Of a stretch of 64,000 nt of DNA, positions 1,097-64,000 are shown piece after piece. The notes below the pieces were generated by a model. The model searched no databases, was not told the origin of the DNA, and saw only the letters and a list, made by a program, of their open reading frames with translations. The translations under genes were made by a program, and so were the position numbers. Positions within the stretch are counted from its first letter, which is position 1. Every line of letters starts with the position of its first letter. The DNA is from Dictyostelium discoideum (Eukaryota), in the NCBI GenBank assembly GCA_000004695.1, contig CM000154.2:672001-736000 (forward strand), given 5' to 3'.

Positions 1097-2076
1097 TATT
1101 TTTATTTATTTATTTATTTATCTATTTATTTATTTATTTATTTGATTTTTGTTTACTTTTGCAAAAGTGATGGTTTTTTTTTTTTTTTTTATTTTATTTT
1201 ATACTGGACATTTTTTTAAAATATAAAATTTATTGTATGTAGATTAAACCACCCATTTTAAGTAATTATTTGACTTGTTAGATCATTTTTGAATAAAGTT
1301 TGAAATTAAAGTTATTTTTAATACTTTAATACTTTCCAAATTATAAAAAAAAAAATAAAAAAATAAAAAAAAAAATAAAAAAAAAAAAAAAATTTCAACC
1401 AACAATACCCGTCTCCAATTAATTTTCGAAAAATTCTGAACTTACACCAATATTGTAATCCAAATACCTCATCAAGACAATCCGATTTTTGATGAATTTT
1501 CAATTTTCCTACTTTTATGAATTTAAAAATAAAATTATCATCATCATCACAAAAAGCCTTTATTTAAAAAAAAAAAAAAAAAAAAAAAAATGCAGTTCGC
1601 TAAAATAAAAAGACATCAAAAAAAAAAAAAAAAAAAATTTATATATTTTTAAAAATAAATATATATATATAATTTTTATATATTAAAAAATTTCAAACTA
1701 ATATATTTTTTTTTTTAAAAAACATTGATGGTTGGTTGTTATTAAAATGATAATGCATATAAAAATTTCAAAATTTAGTTTGTTTTCTTAAAAATTTTCA
1801 TTTTTGTTTGCGAAAAAATTGATATTTTTTTTTTTTCGAAAAGACCCATAAAAAACAAAAAATGTTAATCAATTGCCCTTAAATTATAAATTTTAAACAT
1901 ATGTTGTTGGGAATTATTAGGACATCAGGTTTAAAACCTATTCAGACACCAGAATACAATTTGAATTGAGCGGGCAACGTTCCTTTCACTCTGCACTACA
2001 TCAGCATTACTAGAGAGAAAGGTTGAAAAACCTCTATCGAAGGTGGTGGAACTGCTGAGAAGTAACAGCAATAAAT

Positions 2077-2804
2077 AAAACATTCAAACCGATAGATGAG
2101 AGGTTCAAAATCCATCCAGTTAGTAGGGACTAAAAAACTACAAAACATAAACCCGATCCGATACCTAAGACTCCTTTTTTTTTTTTTTTTTTTTTTTTTA
2201 ATAAATCAAATAAGGTGAGATACAACACAGCAATACCCAAAGTATTCATAAACATCAACAGCATTTCTCACCAAAAAGGTAGAAACACCCTCTTCAGATT
2301 CTTCTCAAGATCACTTCCAGGTATCAACCACGAAAGAGACACCAGATGCAAGATCTGTGGCCACCTATTCAGAGACCCTTATTCTCACCTCTTCACTCTA
2401 TGCCAAGATATCCTAGATATTGAAAAAACCATCATATCAACAGTTAACAAACTATCATTCATCAAAATCCACAGATGGTCAATGGAAACCTTAGACATAT
2501 CAAAATACAACAGAACTGAGAGAATCTTCCCCAATCTCATAGGAATAATAGCACACCAATTATGGAAGATAATCTGTCACAAATTGTTCAACACTGATGA
2601 AAGCAAACCAGAGCCAAAATTCGAACAAAAGGTCATAGAAACAGAATTACTAAATCTCATCGAAACTGAAAAATTCATCACACTAAAGAAAATCAAACAC
2701 GACGAAGCAATACTAAAAAACACCAATCAAGATCTTCACAAATACAAATTCAACAAAGCCTGGCAAACCCCAGCAGCTCCGAACCCTCTTCCAATTTAAG
2801 TAGT

Positions 2805-2861
<57 letters not shown>

Positions 2862-3040
2862 ATATAATATAGTTTAAAAAATTTAATACAATTGAATAAT
2901 AAAAATAAAACCGTTTAACAAACACCGCCGAAAAGACACAAGGACATTCCTTGAAGGTCTGATCACAGGTAAAAAAAAAAAAAAAAAAAAATCAAATAAT
3001 CACATGACCTTGGAGTCTTGGTCTGCCCACGAATTTAAGT
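2077..3040 (+). mobile_element. Putative retroelement-like insertion with internal ORF and oligo(A) tails (family not identified)
   Basis: ORF 2215..2799 (194 aa) has no recognisable domain. It is followed by A(53) at 2808-2860 and A(22) at 2971-2991. The segment is bracketed by 'aaataaaacattcaaa'+'gaggttcaaaatcc' (2077-2112) and 'cttggtctgcccacgaatt' (3021-3040). The same motifs sit contiguously at 21661-21709 without the insert. Confidence 0.35.
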
Positions 3041-3137
3041 GTAAAGTTTATTTTATTTAAACTGGGTGCCTGCAAACATTATCTCATCGACCGATTTATC
3101 GAATTTTAATACTAAAATCTTAAAAACTAGAAAGAAA

Positions 3138-3247
<110 letters not shown>

Positions 3248-3762
3248 CACCTTATTTGAAAATTCAAATTAAAAAAAAGAAATAGCTTTACATTTTAAAA
3301 TTAAAATTCATAAATAAAACCATTATAAAAATATTGAAGTATATCAATAGGTTTAATTTAATTATTGTTTATTTTATAATAAAAAAAAAAAAAAAAATGA
3401 AAATTAATAAATAAAAATAATTAAAATTCTATATTAAAAATAAATATAAAAAAAATAAAAATAAAAAAGATTGTTTTTTAATTACCATTTCTTTTATAAA
3501 AAAATAAATAAAAAAATAATACCATAATAAAGATAATGTTTGCATCACCATTAGAGAAAATGGCAATTGTAATTCAATCTAAAAATAGTGATGGAATGAT
3601 TATCATTTTACTTTTAAATGATATTTATATTTATTTACCAATCCTTCAATTTTATCATTTGTTCAATTAACTTTAATTAAATTATATCCACCACAAATAT
3701 TATTATAAAATAAATAAATAAATAAATAAATAAATAAACAAAACATATGTATTTTAAAAAAT

Positions 3763-4881
3763 TTATTTGTCATCTTTATTTTTGTTAATTTCATCAGATG
3801 ATTCTTTATTTTGATCTTGTTGTTGTTGTTGTTGTTGCTGTTTTTCAAAATGGAAATTACCATGATAATCTAATCTTTTAATTACAAAATCATCAGTTTT
3901 TGGGAATGGTTCATTAATTGAATCATCATTTGATTGTTGTGGTTCAATTCCTTGTTGTTGTTGTTGTTGTGATAATGTAACACTATTATTTTCATTTGTT
4001 AAAATTGAAGGTATTGAAGAATCATTATCAAATTTATAACCAAATGAACTTGTACCAGAAATTTCACTAAAATGTTTTTTTGCAGAACCACGTTGTAATG
4101 GTTTTTGTTGTGATTCATGTGGTGCCCAACCGATTAAATAAATGATTTGAAAAGTTGCAGGAATTGAATTATTATCTTCATTACCATATAAATGTTTATA
4201 GATTGCAGATGCAGCTAAGAATGTATCTTTACTTGTATAGTTTCTTCTTTTTAAGATTGCATTATTTTCACCCATATTTTGTAAATCTCTCATTAATACA
4301 AACATATTATCATAATTTATTGTAATCTTTTCAGTGTCCACTGTTGGTAATGTGTATCTATTCTTTGATAAAATGTTACCAATATCACTAATCTTTGTAA
4401 ATGGTGATACATGTGGACTAAATCCACCCTCTCTTTCAATCTCTGCTAAATATAATGAATCTTTTAATTCCATCAATGTATCCTCACCAAATAACGATGC
4501 CAAAAACACACCATTTGGTTTTAATAATCTCTTTAATCCTCCAAAAACTCCTGGTAAATCATTTACCCAATGTAATGATAAATTACTTATAATTAAATCT
4601 AAACTTTGATCTTCAATACCTTCAATTTTATCTTCTAAACTATTAACTAATATTTTTGTAGGTTTAACTTTATTATTATTATTATCATCTTCATTCTCTT
4701 GAGAGACATTATTATCATCTCTATATAATAATTCTTTTGATGATTCAACCATATAATATTTATCAATTTTTGCACCTTTTTCTTGTATATATTTAAATAA
4801 TGCTCCATTTCTACTACCAAAATCTAAAACATTACCACATTTTATATCTTTAATATCCTTTTTTAATAAATTAATTAGAAA

Positions 4882-7357: not shown

Positions 7358-7484
7358 TTTTTTTTTTTTTTTTTTTTTTCAAACACAAAAAGGTTGGATT
7401 GTTGAGTATAAATCAAGCAAAACTGATCAATTCCAAAGTTTAATGAATAAAGCCCAATATGATGAATATATTAAAGAACATTAG
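6742..7484 (+). CDS. gcvH: Glycine cleavage system H protein (copy b, canonical lipoyl-lysine motif)
   Basis: Exons are 6742..6900, 7001..7190 and 7393..7484, with GTAAGT donors at 6901 and 7191 and AG acceptors. The protein reads …FCTRYTNDHEWVTSLGSQNYRLGITDFAQKQ|LGDIVFVEIPQIGATLSQGQPITVVESVKAASDIYIPMDGSITTVNQELESSPELVNEEPMGD|GWIVEYKSSKTDQFQSLMNKAQYDEYIKEH*. Intron 2 contains (ATT)n. Confidence 0.85.
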
Positions 7485-7686
7485 AAACATTGTTTTTTCC
7501 ACTAATTTTTAATTTAGGATAATGACCTAAAAAAAAAAAAAAAAAAGATCAAAAATAATATGATCAAAAATAAAAATAGAAAAAAGATATTTGTTAACAT
7601 ATTATATTTTAAATAGAAAAATCAAAAATGAATTGTTTTTGTTATTTTTTTATTTTTTTTTTATTTTTTTTATTTTATTATTATAT

Positions 7687-21135: not shown

Positions 21136-21293
21136 AAAATGTTCTAATTTAATTTTAAAAATGACATTATTTTAATAGGGTGGCCTTACCAGCATCAAAT
21201 TCTATCCTTTCGAGACCCATTTGGTGGGATGTGTGGAGAAATCCATACAGTTGGTTCAATTCCAATCTTGAAAACAAATAAATCTTGCCATCT

Positions 21294-21340
<47 letters not shown>

Positions 21341-21500
21341 TGTTCTAATTTAATTTTAAAAATGACATTATTTTAATAGGGTGGCCTTACCAGCATCAAA
21401 TTTTATCCTTTCGAGACCCATTTGGTGGGATGTGTGGAGAAATCCATACAGTTGGTTTGATTCTAATCTTGAAATCAAATAAATCTTACCATCTGTTTTT
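21136..21500 (+). repeat. Tandem duplication of a roughly 160-bp unit carrying a tRNA-like B box (GGTTCAATTCC), each copy ending in a T-run; candidate Pol III ncRNA or tRNA-derived element
   Basis: Copy 1 is 21136..21294, followed by T(41). Copy 2 is 21336..21495, followed by TTTTT, at about 96% identity. Both carry '…ccatacagttGGTTCAATTCCaatcttg…', which forms a T-arm-like stem-loop, and an upstream 'ggccttaccagcatcaa'. Confidence 0.4.
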
Positions 21501-22048
21501 ATCGACACTGAGTTTGGTGTATTTTATTTGGTAATAATTGCATTATTGCTTACTAAAATTAGGTTGTTATTATTGGTGCTTTTAGACTTTTTTGATTAGG
21601 TGAGGGATTTTCTTTCTTTTTTCCCAAAAAAATTTATTAAAAAAAAAATTATAAAAAATAAAATAAAACATTCAAAATAATGGGTTCAAATCTTGGTCTG
21701 ACCACGAATTAACAAATAATAATAATATTAATAAAAATAACTTAATTTTAAAAAATAAAATAAAAAGGATAGTCGACAAGTTTTTTTTTGAGGGAAAGGA
21801 AATTATATATATTTTTTTTTTTTTTTTTTTAAAAATTAGGATATTTAAAAAAAAATCATTAATAAAAAAAAAATTAAAAACAAATTTTATTGTATCTCAT
21901 TTTTTGGTATATCCTTTTTTAATTAAAAAAAAAAACACCAACCAATTATGTGTTTTTATTTTTTAATTAAAAAAAAAAAAAAAAATTGTAATAATAACAA
22001 TTTTTTGAAAATATCCCATTTAAAAAATATCTTAATTTGATTTTTTTG

Positions 22049-22632: not shown

Positions 22633-25600
22633 AAAGTTCCAACACAACCAGAATGGTTTTATTCATGTAAAACTTGTTGTAATGAATCAAACTATTATTG
22701 TAGAAATTGTTTTTTTGATGGTGAACATATTGAAAAAGGACATTCAATTTCAATGACAGAAAATTCTAGTGGTAGAGTTTGTGATTGTGGTGGTGAAGGT
22801 ATTAAACCTGAAGCATATTGTAGTAAACATATTAAATCCAATGAAAAGGTAAAGCAAGAGCTACTAAGTAAGATTCCAAGTTTCGTTAAAAAGGATATTC
22901 ACATTTTCTTTAGATACTCACTTCAATATCTTCAATATTTGTCAACTACATCAGCAACTCAACCAACAATCTCTGAAGAGAACAAAGAGGAGACCATATT
23001 AATTGGAAGTTGGTTCATTATGATAGCATCAATTTCATCGTCATTGGTTCATATGGCTGCAGAAGAAACTTCAGGAAGAGTTTTAGATTCATTAGAGAAT
23101 GGTGAATTTAAATTGAATGAACACAAACCATTACCTTACAAAATTGAAACTCATTCAATGGATGGTAACAGTGATATTATTCAACCATTTGCAAGTAAAA
23201 ATTCAAGTTTATTATCATTTGTATTTGGTAATAGTACCGCATTGCATTCTCTATTGCCATTGATCATCATTTTATATGATAATCATAAGAATTTCAAATT
23301 GGTGGTAATTGAAGAGTTTCTTAAAAACTATTCAAACTTATTTAAAAATAGAGATCAAGTTTCCACCGATATCTCTTTGAAAATGTCAAGTCTCTATTTG
23401 GGTAATAGTTTAATTTCAAAGTTTTGTACCGACTATTCAAAATATAATTACTTGGAATTGGTATTACGTGCTCATAAGAATTACTATGTACCATTGTTAT
23501 TACCATTCTATCAAACTTCAAATCCAGAGGATATCAAAAAGGATGTTATGTTACAAACTGATCTTGAAAATTTCCCAAGATTAATGAAATCCGCGAATAT
23601 TGTAAAATACTTTGTAACCGATGAAGAGAAAATGGATTTATTCTTTGAATTGGCAGGTTCTTATCATAAATTTACAACCTTGGAATATATTGACCCATCA
23701 ATTTCAACTTGTAAATTCCTTTTAAACACTGAACATTACCTTGTCAATACCATTAGAAATATTTTGACAACTATTGAATCTGAAAAAGATTTTATTTTTG
23801 ATTCTGAAACTTTGAAAAAGAAGTTTTTAGATTCAACAATTAAAAGTATCGCCGAGAAATTGGTAAAGAATATTAAAGAATTAAAAAAAAGAGAAATGAC
23901 AAATCGTTGTGGTATGATGTTAGAACATAAGGACTTTTTCGTTAATTTCACCTATGCTGAAATTCCTGTACATTTCCCATTGTTCCGTATTTTATCAGCT
24001 TTCTTATTACTTAGTGGAATGGATCCAATGGAATTGTTGACAACAAAATATAATCTAACTCAAGCTGATATCACTGAAATGGTTACAACTATTCTTTTGT
24101 TTAGATTCTGTTATATCACCTATGATATTCAATCCTCCACTGAAAATATCACCGATATCTCCATGTTGTACGATTTACATATACTTCAAGTTGGTCTCTG
24201 TTTATTGGGTACAAAGAAATTCTTATTGACTTTCTTTAATGCTTTATCATCAATCAGTCATGGTAACAATTCAAAGGTATTCGTTGATAATCTTTCCTTG
24301 TTAATCTCTGTATTCCAAACTAGAGCAAATCTTGCACCAACTAAAACTCAAGCATTCTATCATTTGTACCAAGGTGCCATGTCTGGTTTATTCTTTAAAG
24401 TTCATTTCCGTTCATTCGATATGATTTTACCAGGTTTCACTGAAAATGATATTTGTGAAAAGCATATCGAAGAGTTTACAACACCAGGTGAAACAGAAAA
24501 GCTTTTACTCGATCAAACCAATTGGAAATATTATGATAAATATTATCCATACTTTTCTTTGAACTATCGTGATTTAATCTCTTCAAATTGTTCAAAGAAG
24601 TATAAAGCCTATCAAGAATCATTGGGTTTACCAGGCAACTTCAATCCATTACCACCACAACTTGAAGAATTACCATCACAATTATCTGGTGTTTATTCAG
24701 CATTAAATGATCAATACCTTTTCGAAATGATTTTCAATGTTTTGGTTGCACCATTGCACTCAACATTTGTTGATTATGAAAATTCCTTTGAATTACAATC
24801 TGTTATCAAACGTTTATTCTCTTCAGTTCCAGTTCCACCAATCAATGAATTTTTTTATATTTTAACATTGACTTTCAAATCTTTTAAAGAACAATTCTTA
24901 CCAAAATTACAAGATTCAGAGAAATTGGAATTACAACAATCACTTCAAGAATACTTTAAATTGGATTCTGAAAATAAATTCACTTTCAAATTCCAATCAA
25001 CAATTAAAGAGAATGCAATCACTCATTTACTTCAAGTTTATCATGTTAACTTGGGTGAATCAAATGGTAAAGTTATGTTATCATTATATGATTTACTTTT
25101 AAAATATAATGAAATCATTAAAAAAGATAATTTACTTTATTCTGAATATACTTCAAATATCAATTATGTTTTCAATATTCTTTTTGAATTTGATTCTGAA
25201 ATATTTAATCAATTTAAACAACAATCAAATGTAGTTGCTGCTGTTGTTGATGTTGCTGCTTCTGCTGCTGCTGTTGATAACTCTACTACAGAAAATACCA
25301 CCACAACCACTTCATCATTAAATGTTGAAGATTCATTAAAAGATTTAAATATTAAAGATGATTCAACAACAACAACAACAACTACTGTTGATGCTACTGC
25401 CACCACCACCACTAATGAAGAAACAACAAAGAATTGTGTAATTTGTAATGGTAATGAAGAAGTTGGTAGATTATTTTCAATGTCATATATTGATTTATCA
25501 TCAGTTACATTCCAAAATGCAACTAGAACTGTTTATCAATATTCAAAGGATAAAGAGAATGGTTATGATCCACGTTATCAAACTTTTCTTGAAAACTTTT

Positions 25601-27162
25601 ACTTTATTGATATTAAACCAGGTACATCACAATACATTCCATATAAAGATGATCCAGCACCATTATTTGCATGTTATCTTTTCCAAAGGTGTCCATCCAC
25701 TTATATCTCTAGTTGTGGTCATAATGTTCACAAGAAATGTTTAGAAAAATATAATAAAACCAATCCACCACCAGTCAATACACTTTTCAACAATACCTAT
25801 AAATGTCCAAAATCAGGTTGCTCAAGAGAATGTGACATTCTCATTCCATTAGGTAAACCAGATACTTCATTAGATTTTAAATCTTCAGCCAATGAATTAT
25901 TCTCAACCATGTGTTATTTCGATTTCTTAGCTTTGATGGAAAAAGAAAACAAATACAGTATCGATAAGTATTTATGGAAATTTGTTTTACAAAATATTGA
26001 AACCTTGGAATTGAAATCAAGAAAAACCAAACTCTACAATGAATCTGAAAATGATCCAGAATACCATTTAATGAGTGAACAAGAATTCCAAAATGAAATG
26101 TTAACAACTTCACGTCTTTTCAAGGTAGTTATGACTGCAGATGTTGAACCAGAACCACTCTTACCAATTTACGACCAATCAACCTTCTTTATGGATCCAT
26201 TCACAAGTAGTAGTTATTCAGTTTACTTGGAACCAAAAGAACAACCAATTGAATTGTTATTCAAAGGTTTAGCATTATACCTTTTCAATGTACTCCTTAA
26301 TCATTGCTTTAGAAATAAAGTTGTTCCAAGTGAAAGTGCTGATAATCCAACCATCGTTTCAAAATTAATCATTGAAGAATTTAATAAACTCTTCTTTGAT
26401 GATTCAAATAAATTAAAACAATTGGATCAAAAGGTTTATTTAGAATTTAAAAATCAAATCCATCCATACCTTAGAAAACTTTTGATTTTCAATAATCTCT
26501 ACAAACCAGAATCATTGAAATCTTCAACCACTTTTGATATTTCTTTGGATGTACTTTCAGACTTTAATCAATGTATGAAGTTATTGTTTAATTTCGATTC
26601 AATTGAACTTTTATTCTCACAATTGGTTACAAAGGATTATTTAGAGTTAACTTTGAACTTCTTTATGAAAAAGAGAAAACTCAGTTCAAATATTTCAAGT
26701 TTCCCACAATTATTATGTACCTATCCACCACCACAACAATATGACTTCCTTCCAGATTTCTTTGAAATGTTGCCAAAATATGCCGATTCTATCAAAGAGA
26801 ATACTGATGTTGGTAATTGTTCAGTTTGTAAAAAGATTAACAAAATGGTTTGTTTAGTTTGTGGTGTTGGTATTTGCCCAAGCACAACTTGTAAACTTGG
26901 TCCAATCGTCCATTTATATTCTTGTCAATCCGCTCCAATAGGTTACTATCAACATGTTCCTTCTCCAAGTCTTTTTGTTTACATAACAAAACATAGTATT
27001 TTCACAAGATCATTCTCAACCTCCATTTACTTAGATAAAAATGGTAAAAAACCAACAGATCTCTCTGATTGCAATTTAACTCTTTCAAAGAAAGAATTGA
27101 AAAAACTCTTTATTAATTGGATGAATCATTCAAACTCTAATTTTTTAATTAAAAATAAATAA
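22189..27162 (+). CDS. UBR-box E3 ubiquitin ligase (N-recognin family), paralog 1
   Basis: Exons are 22189..22226 (MSFFSNLFSKPE, GTAAGC donor), 22366..22544 (…KAPTFEEFKK…SKETSKCQH) and 22637..27162. UBR-box zinc finger: EWFYSCKTCCNESNYYCRNCFFDGEHIEKGHSISMTENSSGRVCDCGGEGIKPEAYCSKH. UBR RING-like region: FACYLFQRCPSTYISSCGHNVHKKCLEKY…CPKSGCSRECDILIPLG. C-terminal Cys-rich UBR autoinhibitory domain: CSVCKKINKMVCLVCGVGICP…. Confidence 0.8.
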
Positions 27163-40715: not shown

Positions 40716-40805
40716 TGCCCGAGCTCAGAATCGAACTGAGGACCCTCTGTTATCGCTTTAGTACATAGTACAAGACAGATATAATAACCACTATACGACA
40801 CGGGC
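40716..40805 (-). tRNA. Intron-containing tRNA gene, anticodon most likely UGU (Thr); 73-nt mature body plus a 17-nt intron
   Basis: The minus strand reads GCCCGTGTCGTATAGTGGTTATTATATCTGTCTTGTA[CTATGTACTAAAGCGAT]AACAGAGGGTCCTCAGTTCGATTCTGAGCTCGGGCA. Features: D-loop AGTGGTTA, anticodon stem TCTGT/ACAGA, loop CTTGTAA with the intron after position 37, T-arm CTCAG-TTCGATT-CTGAG, a 7-bp acceptor stem with one U•U, and discriminator A. It is immediately followed by GTTTTT, a Pol III terminator. Confidence 0.7.
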
Positions 40806-43754: not shown

Positions 43755-49476
<5,722 letters not shown>

Positions 49477-61544: not shown

Positions 61545-64000
61545 GAAATTATTTATTTATTCAATTTTATTTCTTTTAATATTTAAAAGTTTTTTTGTAA
61601 ATTCAACAACATTAAAAGAAAATGAAATTGGTTCAATAAAAAAACAAAAGTCTCCATTTGAAGAGAATAATATTTCACAATTAGATTTTACATCAGTTTT
61701 TTCGCCAGGTGTTTATGCTATACCTTGGACTGATCCAAATATGCCAACAGTGGCATTGGAACAAGCCTCACATTCTGGTTATTTCATTGGAAATGTTATT
61801 CTTCAAGGAAGTCAATTCAATGACCCAAAATTGAGTGGTTTATTGAATGGAAAGGATCTTTATGTACTCAGTCATTTTTCAGGTGCAGCTTGTTGTCAAA
61901 ATGTTACAAGTGAAATAAAATTATTATTTACCTTTCCAATAAGCAATATTTGTTTGTTGATCGCATCTGTTGATGAGAGTGATTTTGTTACTGTAAGAGC
62001 CAGAAAAACACAAACCGATAATATTTATGGAATTGGTAGCTCAAATGCTCAAATGGATATGAAAAAAGATTGGGCAAACTATGGACAAGGCACTTTATCA
62101 GTTTCAGGGGTACAACCATCAAATAATTCGGGTATACCTCCAATTGTTCTCACTAGAGATCATTCAAAAGCTTTTATTACAAGTATGGGAAATCCAACCA
62201 CAATTAACTATCAGATCTTGGCTCCATTCATTAATGTATCTTCAATTCATATTTCTTATTCAACTTTATCCGATTCTCAATACGTATTTTATGCACTTTT
62301 CCAATGTCCAAAACCAACCAGTGATATTGAACCAACCTGTGAACCTGGATGCATGACAAGTGGAACTACTTCAACAACAACAACATCAAAAACAACAACA
62401 ACAGCAACAACTAAAACATCAACAACCGGTTCTTTGACTACTGGCCCTTCACAAAGTACTGGTCCTTCAACAACTACAACTACTGGTGGATCACAAAGTA
62501 CTGGTGTTTCAACGACCATAACAAGTGGATCACAAAGTACTGGTGCATCAACAACTGCCACAGCTAGTGGATCACAAAGTACTAGCGCATCAACAACTGC
62601 CACAGCTAGTGGTTCACAAAGTACTGGTGCATCAACTGCCACAACTAGTGGAGGAAGCACTGGATTTATTTCCGGAGCTTCAACAACTTCAATGTCAACA
62701 ACAACAGCAACAGGTAGTATTCCAACAACTGGATCACAAACCTCTACATCAGGATCATACACAACAACTGGATCACAAACCTCTACTTCAGGAACATACA
62801 CAACAACTGGATCACAAACTTCCACTTCAGGAACATACACAACAACCGGATCACAAACTTCCACTTCAGGAACATACACTACAACAACTAAACCATCTAC
62901 AACTACTGGTGGAGGAAGCACTGGATTCCTATCAGGAGCTTCAACAACTTTGGGTGGTGGGTCAGGATCATCGACCTCCTCACAATCTGGTCAAAGTTCA
63001 ACCGGTATTATTTCAGGAGTTATATCAGGAGGTAATAGTGTCGCAGGAGGATCAGGATCAGTCGGAAATAGTGGTTCAATTACTGGTTTAACAACAACTA
63101 CTGGTGGAATAAGTGGAGGTAATTTTATTGCAGGTGTAACAACTTCAAATTCAATCGCTCAAACTGGATCAGTTACAGGTTTAATTGCCAATGGTATTGC
63201 AGGATCAGTCGGAGGTTTAACAACAGCCAATTCATTAACAGGAGTAGGTTCAATTGGTAATATCGCCAATGCAATTTCAACTGGTCTTGTCGGTCAAATC
63301 ACAACATCAAAACCAACAATCTCATCAACAACAACAACAATATCCAGTCAAGCTACAAGTGGCTTTATTTCTGGAGCAGGTAGTATCGCTGGTGGATTAT
63401 CAATTGGTAATAGTGGATCAGTAGCCGGAATAACAACTCAATCAGGAAGCTTAACTGGTGCAAATACAGTAGCAGCAGTAACAACAGCCAACTCAATTGG
63501 ATCCAAAACATCAATAACTGGTGTTTCATCAATTGGAGCAATTTCAGGTTCAATTGATGGATTAACAACTGCAAACTCATTAACTGGTGTGTCATCAATC
63601 GCTGGTATAACTAATCAAGCATCATCAATCGCCAATGCAATTTCAGGTGGTAATATTGCAGGTGTAACTACATCTCAAATTTCAACCGGTATTATTTCAG
63701 GAGTAATTGCAGGAGGATCTGGATCAATCACATCTCCACAATCTATAACTGGCCAAAGTTCAACCAGTATTACTTCAGGAGTAATTTCAGGAGTTATATC
63801 AGGAGGTAATAGTGTCGCAGGAGGATCAGGATCAGTCGGAAATAGTGGCTCAATTACTGGTTTAACAACAAATGGTGGAATAAGCGGAGGTAATGCTATT
63901 GCAGGTGTAACAACTTCAAATTCAATCGCTCAAACTGGATCAGTTACAGGATTAACTGCAAATGGTATTGCAGGATCAGTCGGAGGATTAACAACAGCAA
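61545..64000 (+). CDS. Secreted Cys-containing N-domain protein with a long Ser/Thr/Gly-rich repetitive (mucin-like) region; 3' end outside window
   Basis: The reading frame is open from the ATG at 61545 to the window end. Signal peptide MKLFIYSILFLLIFKSFFVNS. The N-domain is about 270 aa with 9 Cys (…AACCQNVTSEIK…CPKPTSDIEPTCEPGCM). 39-bp tandem repeats begin at 62430 (…STGASTTATASGSQ… x4, then …TTGSQTSTSGTYT… x4). A roughly 210-bp block is repeated (63028-63240 and 63805-64000). Confidence 0.6.

Follow-up and report, generated by a model that had tools for sequence, protein, structure and literature searches.

TRE3 elements usually land ~100 bp downstream of the B box in a tRNA gene. They are L1-like, end in an oligo(A) tail and carry an ORF2 with endonuclease, reverse transcriptase and zinc finger, and their site preference is downstream of a tRNA gene, in the same orientation (PMC5911963, PMC5006619); TRE elements represent ~3.7% of the D. 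discoideum genome (PMC5006619). On the extrachromosomal rDNA element, TRE5-A integrates at A/B-box loci that have no tRNA context (PMC5391098), a published precedent for Pol III-type targets other than tRNA genes. DUSE-dependent ncRNA genes (Class I RNAs, snRNAs; PMC7919456), with a DUSE ~60 nt before a G-start and a T-run after a GC-richer block, are a further described system with which the locus can be compared.

In a stretch of 64,000 nucleotides of D. discoideum DNA, hereafter the window, we found a segment (2214-2991) that is very probably a dead, 5'-truncated copy of a TRE3-family element, a tRNA-gene-targeted, L1-like non-LTR retrotransposon. The likeness to the described family (TRE3-A/Tdd-3, -B, -C, -D) includes the L1-like type, the oligo(A) tail, the target-site duplication and the frequent 5' truncation, as well as an ORF2 with endonuclease, reverse transcriptase and zinc-finger regions. 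The name TRE3 is set here by architecture, behaviour and published description, at the family level and with no subfamily assigned. Such a copy is a known kind of element and ordinary; the only unusual point is its target, which is not a tRNA gene.

The retroelement segment and its relatives

The segment lies on the plus strand, measures 778 bp and is recognized by its similarity to copies at other loci. Homology with longer copies begins exactly at G2214 (GGTGAGATACA), the bases 5' of this position being unlike TRE3, and similarity among copies stops at the terminal oligo(A) tail (2971-2991). The sequence TCAAATAA is found directly before G2214 (2206-2213) and again directly after the A-tail (2992-2999); with three further A residues the left copy, (AAA)TCAAATAA, starts at 2203 (2203-2213), so that the segment is bracketed by a target-site duplication of 8-11 bp. 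The chance of a random abutting 8-mer repeat is ~1e-3 by our own estimate. Given that the duplication abuts both limits of homology, the element can be equated with 2214-2991. Target-site duplications had been proposed as a feature to look for in a preliminary description of this DNA, and they are thus present. Together with the A21 tail, the variable 5' truncation and the many copies, they are hallmarks of non-LTR elements.

Following the mechanism known for the family, the copy would have arrived by target-primed reverse transcription. The element's endonuclease would have nicked the target, reverse transcription would have begun at the oligo(A) tail, and it would have ended, or switched template, 778 nt in, leaving behind the C-terminal zinc-knuckle part of ORF2, an internal A-run, a 110-nt 3' module and the tail. 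Under such an insertion model, the pre-insertion site is expected to have read ...AAATCAAATAA TCACATG...

The C-terminal 194 codons of ORF2 form a frame that is still open (2215-2799, plus strand) and has no genuine start codon: since homology to longer copies starts at G2214, its apparent GTG start is a mere truncation point. The encoded protein is 99% identical to that of an ORF at another D. discoideum locus (L006, 9187-9777), which comes after a 519-codon ORF matching the Pfam reverse transcriptase domain RVT_1 (5.4e-37). In protein P0136, RVT_1 and the region found in the window (96% identical) occur within one frame, and a distant relative, P0142 (1189 aa), contains an endonuclease domain (Exo_endo_phos), RVT_1 and this C-terminal region. 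The three components of a TRE3 ORF2 (endonuclease, reverse transcriptase and C-terminal zinc finger) are thus found via relatives, the window itself retaining the knuckle and the C-terminus only. Protein searches gave 15 Dictyostelium matches and 22 representatives, and all homologues come from D. discoideum, D. citrinum or D. dimigraforme. The ORF had been described as devoid of any recognisable domain. This is correct as far as Pfam is concerned, a search of the 194 codons returning nothing significant, but it overlooks a zinc knuckle, CKICGHLFRDPYSHLFTLC (CX2CX9HX4C; 2347-2403, plus strand), whose C/H positions are kept in every homologue covering the region, and the fact that the frame is the C-terminus of a reverse-transcriptase-bearing ORF2.

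Downstream of the ORF, alignment of the 3' ends of seven copies from three species showed a constant architecture. Six of them reach the end of ORF2 and all have, in the same order, the stop codon, GTAGTAGT, an A-run of variable length (2808-2859 in the window), a conserved 110-nt module (2860-2970), and the terminal A-tail. The seventh (L002, 3290-3412) is a stand-alone module plus tail. The core of the module, TTTAACAAACACCGCCGA, is invariant in the seven copies. The two A-rich stretches, all on the plus strand like the rest of the element, had been read as two A-tails. Both runs exist, but the constancy of the arrangement indicates that they belong to the 3' UTR of one element, the first of them being internal.

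Copies related at the DNA level occur in D. discoideum, D. citrinum and D. dimigraforme, with identities to the window copy of 96% (L006, 9192-9951), 96% (L001), 93% (L010), 88% (L007) and 76% (L002). Six different 5' ends were found, at 2214 in the window and at the equivalents of 2523, 2464, 2428, 2399 and 2862 elsewhere, and this variety is a signature of target-primed reverse transcription with 5' truncation. Five interpretable copies follow a tRNA gene, whose orientation they share, at a distance of 77-145 bp (L001, L006, L009, L010, and L002, where the fragment is inverted), and they match the published TRE3 pattern (PMC5911963, PMC5006619). In the D. discoideum locus L001, for instance, a 96% identical copy of window positions 2523-2988, with the same A-run, 110-nt module and A-tail, sits ~100 bp downstream of a tRNA gene (3863-3934) whose orientation it shares, and has a 14-bp target-site duplication, GTTTGTTAGTTTGT, at both sides. 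The copy of L006 begins 84 bp past the tRNA gene at 7480-7553, which has an external B box (7588-7598).

Two arrangements at these loci deserve mention in their own right. Positions 7619-10495 of L006 contain TRE3 copies in tandem, one of 2.3 kb followed by one of 0.5 kb, and a single 16-bp target-site duplication (GAAAAAGGTTCTTTTA) flanks the pair, which suggests either one integration with template switching or an insertion into the tail of the first copy. In L002, a tRNA-like sequence with two B-box motifs (GGTTCAAGCC and AGTTCGAATCC; 3650-3735, plus strand), below the Rfam tRNA threshold, is separated by 274 bp, which include a tandem repeat, from a TRE3 copy downstream on the plus strand; the tRNA-like sequence may be another degenerate target.

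The preliminary description had placed an oligo(A)-tailed, TRE-type non-LTR retroelement beside B-box-like sequence, and this proposal is borne out by a 5'-truncated TRE3-family copy. The outcome that it had set against itself, a single-copy segment similar to no repeat and expressed as an ordinary gene, is not what we observed, the segment belonging to a multi-copy family whose members are 76-96% identical.

Target DNA and the motifs shared with a second site

None of the usual placements was found for the window copy: it does not follow a tRNA gene of like orientation at 40-150 bp, nor does it show the TRE5-like position, ~50 bp upstream of a tRNA gene and in opposite orientation. No tRNA gene was detected upstream of it by Rfam at E<=10, or by ARAGORN with intron detection, whether at default thresholds or with the standard option that lowers the score. 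With the score threshold reduced much further, ARAGORN made only one call on the minus strand upstream of the copy, which we judged spurious. As a positive control, the tRNA gene at 40716-40805 was recovered by both programs (ARAGORN with intron detection). The Rfam search covered 1750-3150 and 21300-22000, at the gathering threshold and at E<=10, and gave chance-level matches only. A tRNA gene at 2030-2130 was considered as the target and rejected, no cloverleaf being recognized there by tRNA models.

What is present upstream, on the same strand, is a pair of motifs resembling internal Pol III promoter elements. An A-box-like sequence, TGGTGGAACTG (2044-2054), fits TRRYNNARYNG, and is followed 47 nt later by a B-box-like sequence, GGTTCAAAATCC (2102-2113, containing GGTTCAA), itself 90-93 nt before the insertion point; an A box thus precedes the B-like box at a distance within 30-60 nt. 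By the stringent definitions used for D. discoideum (A box TRRYNNARYNG, B box GTTCRANNC; PMC5391098), the latter, GTTCAAAAT(C), misses the consensus by one inserted base and is not a strict B box. An A box followed by GGTTCRA with a gap of 30-60 nt occurs nowhere else on either strand of the window (128 kb), against 0.11 expected, a figure to be read with the fact that this A/B-box reading is post hoc, made after sight of the sequence.

Both boxes lie in an unclassified block of 266 bp (1909-2174, plus strand) that is not AT-rich, with 39% G+C against ~13% in its flanks, and is a candidate Pol III-type unit. A candidate DUSE-type promoter motif, ACCCATAA (1844-1851, plus strand), matches WCCCAYAA exactly and precedes by 58 nt the GGG (1909-1911) that opens the GC-richer block; the same spacing between DUSE and start is observed at the ncRNA gene beginning at 21178 and at its D. 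firmibasis orthologue. Immediately after the block comes a run of 25 T residues (2175-2199, plus strand), a possible Pol III terminator. DUSE and T-run are thus both present around 1909-2199, each motif being common in this genome: WCCCAYAA shows no enrichment in the window, with 6 occurrences against 11 expected, and T25 alone is weak evidence given that T-runs are common throughout the genome. The resemblance to DUSE-dependent ncRNA genes is partial, in contrast to which the block measures 266 nt and has no Class I motif, no Rfam match at E<=10 and no significant folding (z-score -1.06 for 1909-2174; -0.4 to -1.5 for the upstream block on both strands). A six-frame protein search with 1880-2180 and 2992-3135, concatenated, gave nothing at E<=10; no second copy of the block was found in ~150 kb of other Dictyostelium DNA, and a comparison of the flanks (tblastx, blastn) with the remaining window sequence and with ~90 kb from Dictyostelium loci retrieved only the two short motifs described below.

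We regard the A box and B-like box, 90 bp upstream and in the same orientation, as the most likely attractant of the element, and give about even odds that a Pol III-type locus was its target. Both boxes may be parts of a Pol III-type unit (1909-2199) that is driven by the DUSE and terminated by the T-run. The case differs in several respects from the TRE5-A precedent (PMC5391098): there, the element lies upstream of its target, in opposite orientation, and the evidence is experimental, whereas here a TRE3 element lies downstream, in the same orientation, at a chromosomal site, with a B box off consensus by one inserted base and a link drawn from sequence only.

The surroundings of the copy have a particular history. 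The neighbouring gene is NDUFAF5 (DDB_G0287769), which directly adjoins an MtN3_slv gene in D. citrinum and D. firmibasis, while the two are separated in D. discoideum by an old-yellow-enzyme gene and a DUF5898 gene. Comparison of window positions 1500-3812 with loci L003, L004 and L008 showed that 1500-3534 has no counterpart beside NDUFAF5 in D. citrinum or D. firmibasis, and that 3534-3812 is a 280-bp relic copy of the MtN3_slv 3' end (79% identical), which marks the old junction. Judging from these gene orders, the old-yellow-enzyme gene moved to this side in D. discoideum. Because 1500-3534 is missing from the loci of the other species, the unclassified block and the TRE3 copy lie in lineage-specific junction DNA. 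An empty site was not found: a second D. discoideum assembly (99.7% identical) carries the insert, and D. citrinum and D. firmibasis are devoid of the whole segment.

Two motifs around the insertion recur at a compact site elsewhere in the window (21661-21710, plus strand; site 2), which contains a 16-mer, a B box and a 20-mer, without an A box. The 16-mer, AAATAAAACATTCAAA, is found between the A box and the B-like box (2073-2088) and at 21661-21676, on the plus strand, exact and at these two places only; its match alone is weak, as ~0.24 would be expected by chance. The 20-mer, TCTTGGTCTGNCCACGAATT, is more telling: its copy at 3016-3035 (TCTTGGTCTGCCCACGAATT, plus strand), starting 16 bp past the right target-site duplication, is identical at 19 of 20 positions to 21691-21710, for an expectation of 0. 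When all GC-containing 20-mers of the window were compared with one another, allowing one mismatch at most, this pair was recovered, the others occurring only between duplicated-looking regions (the tandem ncRNA genes, ~24-26/46-48 kb, and a repeat block at 62-64 kb), and for this reason we regard the 20-mer match as true homology and not as a chance resemblance. A whole-window repeat search was dominated by low-complexity DNA. The B-like motif of site 2 is GGTTCAAATC (21683-21692), and the strict B box of the site, GTTCAAATC, satisfies GTTCRANNC; the site also comprises a near-palindrome, TGGTCTGACCA, and is ~165 bp downstream of the second of two tandem ncRNA genes. All the sequences listed in the preliminary description (16-mer, 20-mer, B-like motifs, ORF 2215-2799 and A-runs) are indeed present, with coordinates that needed shifting by at most 5 nt, and by 4-5 nt for two motif positions.

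The 16-mer, the B-like box and the 20-mer are target DNA, outside the element. If the TRE3 copy is removed, ~107 bp still remain between the B-like box and the 20-mer (2114-2213, including T25, plus 3000-3015), a stretch that has no duplication of its own and no match elsewhere. A spliceosomal intron was considered for these extra 107 bp and rejected, no GT...AG boundary being possible on either strand. Judging by the 20-mer, the two motif sites share ancestry, and both a gain at site 1, beside the TRE3 copy, and a loss at site 2 are possible.

One explanation of the flanks, compatible with the TRE3 copy, is that a single low-copy unit of target DNA is partially represented at both of them, for example a small module of Pol III type or with a B box, or filler DNA copied in double-strand-break repair, one site having gained ~107 bp or the other having lost them. 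The real homology of the 20-mer is in its favour, as are the strict B box of site 2, downstream of a B-box-containing pair of ncRNA genes, and the position of site 1 within ~2 kb of lineage-specific junction DNA made by rearrangement. Yet only two copies were seen, with no further collinear similarity (when site 1 was aligned with the region from the ncRNA genes to site 2, the 20-mer alone aligned), the covariance model of the neighbouring ncRNA family matches neither site, and ~90 kb of other Dictyostelium loci contain no copies. On balance we hold such an origin to be a serious possibility, a little short of an even chance. An origin from the rDNA A/B-box loci was tested by searching the supplement of PMC5391098 for the motifs, and none was found there. 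A 15/17 match of AAATCCATCCAGTTAGT to the ncRNA was judged to be at chance level.

Alternative readings of the segment

Three scenarios that dispense with a TRE3 copy limited to 2214-2991 were weighed. According to the first, the whole of 1909-2991 would be one internally deleted TRE3, its 5' UTR fused to the 3' end of ORF2. In its favour, the sequence of 1909-2174 is rich in A without being AT-rich, which resembles the sense strand of TRE elements, and the comparison covered copies that stop short of a full-length TRE3 5' end. However, the block and the ORF2 remnant are separated by the T25 and by one copy of the target-site duplication, a segment from 1909 to 2991 is not flanked by any duplication, no tRNA gene is found within 150 bp upstream of 1909, and the block is missing from all eight other TRE3-carrying loci. 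We consider this scenario very improbable.

The second is the model of the preliminary description, in which one insertion of ~0.9 kb (~2113-3015) cleanly split a pair of motifs that is contiguous at 21661-21710. The 16-mer, B-like box and 20-mer do occur in equal order and orientation at both sites. But the homology to all other copies runs from 2214 to 2991, with the duplication at both ends, and the clean split fails on the ~107 bp of unrelated DNA that separate the motifs after removal of TRE3, and that match no element copy and show no duplication of their own. The split is thus very improbable. The alternative offered at the same time, that 21661-21709 arose from the same element by deletion, receives no support for TRE3, given that the shared 16-mer, B-like box and 20-mer are all outside it.

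The third, an ordinary host gene, is the least credible of all: the frame is open over 194 codons and an automated annotation predicts a 203-aa gene over window positions 2096-2799 in GCA_054883475.1, but the frame opens right at the truncation point without a genuine start codon, shares 99% identity with the end of a reverse-transcriptase-bearing ORF2 and has many truncated copies with differing 5' ends, and the predicted first exon begins within the B-like box. That prediction (L003, 8322-9025), with its ATG inside the box and a continuation into the ORF2 remnant, is probably an annotation artefact.

Non-tRNA B-box genes and other features of the window

The tandem ncRNA genes located upstream of site 2 (21178-21294 and 21379-21495, plus strand) are 117 nt long and 96% identical to each other; the corresponding intergenic region of D. 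firmibasis contains an orthologue (L008, 3335-3448). A DUSE is present 58 nt upstream of the first copy and of the orthologue; the duplicated unit of the second copy has ~45 nt of upstream sequence and no DUSE. The ncRNA has a 7-bp terminal stem with compensatory changes, a tRNA-like T-arm bearing a B box and a T-run terminator, and no Rfam match. It also contains CUUAC(C)AGCAU, which we take to resemble the Class I RNA motif. At a very loose threshold, ARAGORN miscalled these genes as intron-containing tRNA-Gly, and made a spurious call at site 2 as well.

In D. firmibasis, this ncRNA gene is followed by two tandem non-LTR 3' fragments (L008, ~3519-3617 and ~3620-4345), each with A-run, module and A-tail, which begin ~100 bp after the ncRNA B box and have the same orientation. 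A weakly similar ORF2 C-terminus is present as well (E 6e-4, in a small search). No tRNA gene lies between the ncRNA B box and the fragments, and no target-site duplications could be defined for them. This arrangement suggests that TRE3-like elements can use non-tRNA B-box genes, and that non-tRNA targeting recurs.

A bolder proposal, which we put forward tentatively and regard as possible rather than probable, is that TRE3-type elements would recognize any TFIIIC-bound B-box gene, the window copy then marking an undescribed chromosomal Pol III unit at 1909-2199, made up of a DUSE promoter, an A box, a B-like box and a T25 terminator, and 21661-21710 being a second partial copy of its B-box module. 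The D. firmibasis fragments, placed behind a conserved 117-nt ncRNA outside Rfam, count as independent support for the B-box-gene part of this proposal. A TRE3 copy as such is routine, and the modest value of this one resides in its target. TRE insertions are natural reporters of the binding of Pol III transcription factors, and an intact target-site duplication without a tRNA gene points to a candidate non-tRNA TFIIIC/Pol III site on the chromosome. Recurrent non-tRNA targeting would qualify the statement that TRE3 is always associated with tRNA genes, and would provide two concrete loci for testing.

Some other features of the window may be recorded. The intron-containing tRNA-Thr(UGU) gene at 40716-40805 (minus strand) is accompanied by an external B box (GGTTCGATGTC), located 24 nt downstream, and the ~340 bp read on the 3' side of the gene contain no TRE element; the gene is missed by ARAGORN in default bacterial mode and found by Rfam and ARAGORN -i. 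The regions 23950-26150 and 45600-48450 share GC-containing 20-mers, the first of them lying inside a large UBR-type E3 ligase-like ORF (22753-27162), so that a paralogous second copy is likely within the window. Lastly, 62450-63950 contains dense, GC-containing internal direct repeats, and is probably a repetitive coding region.
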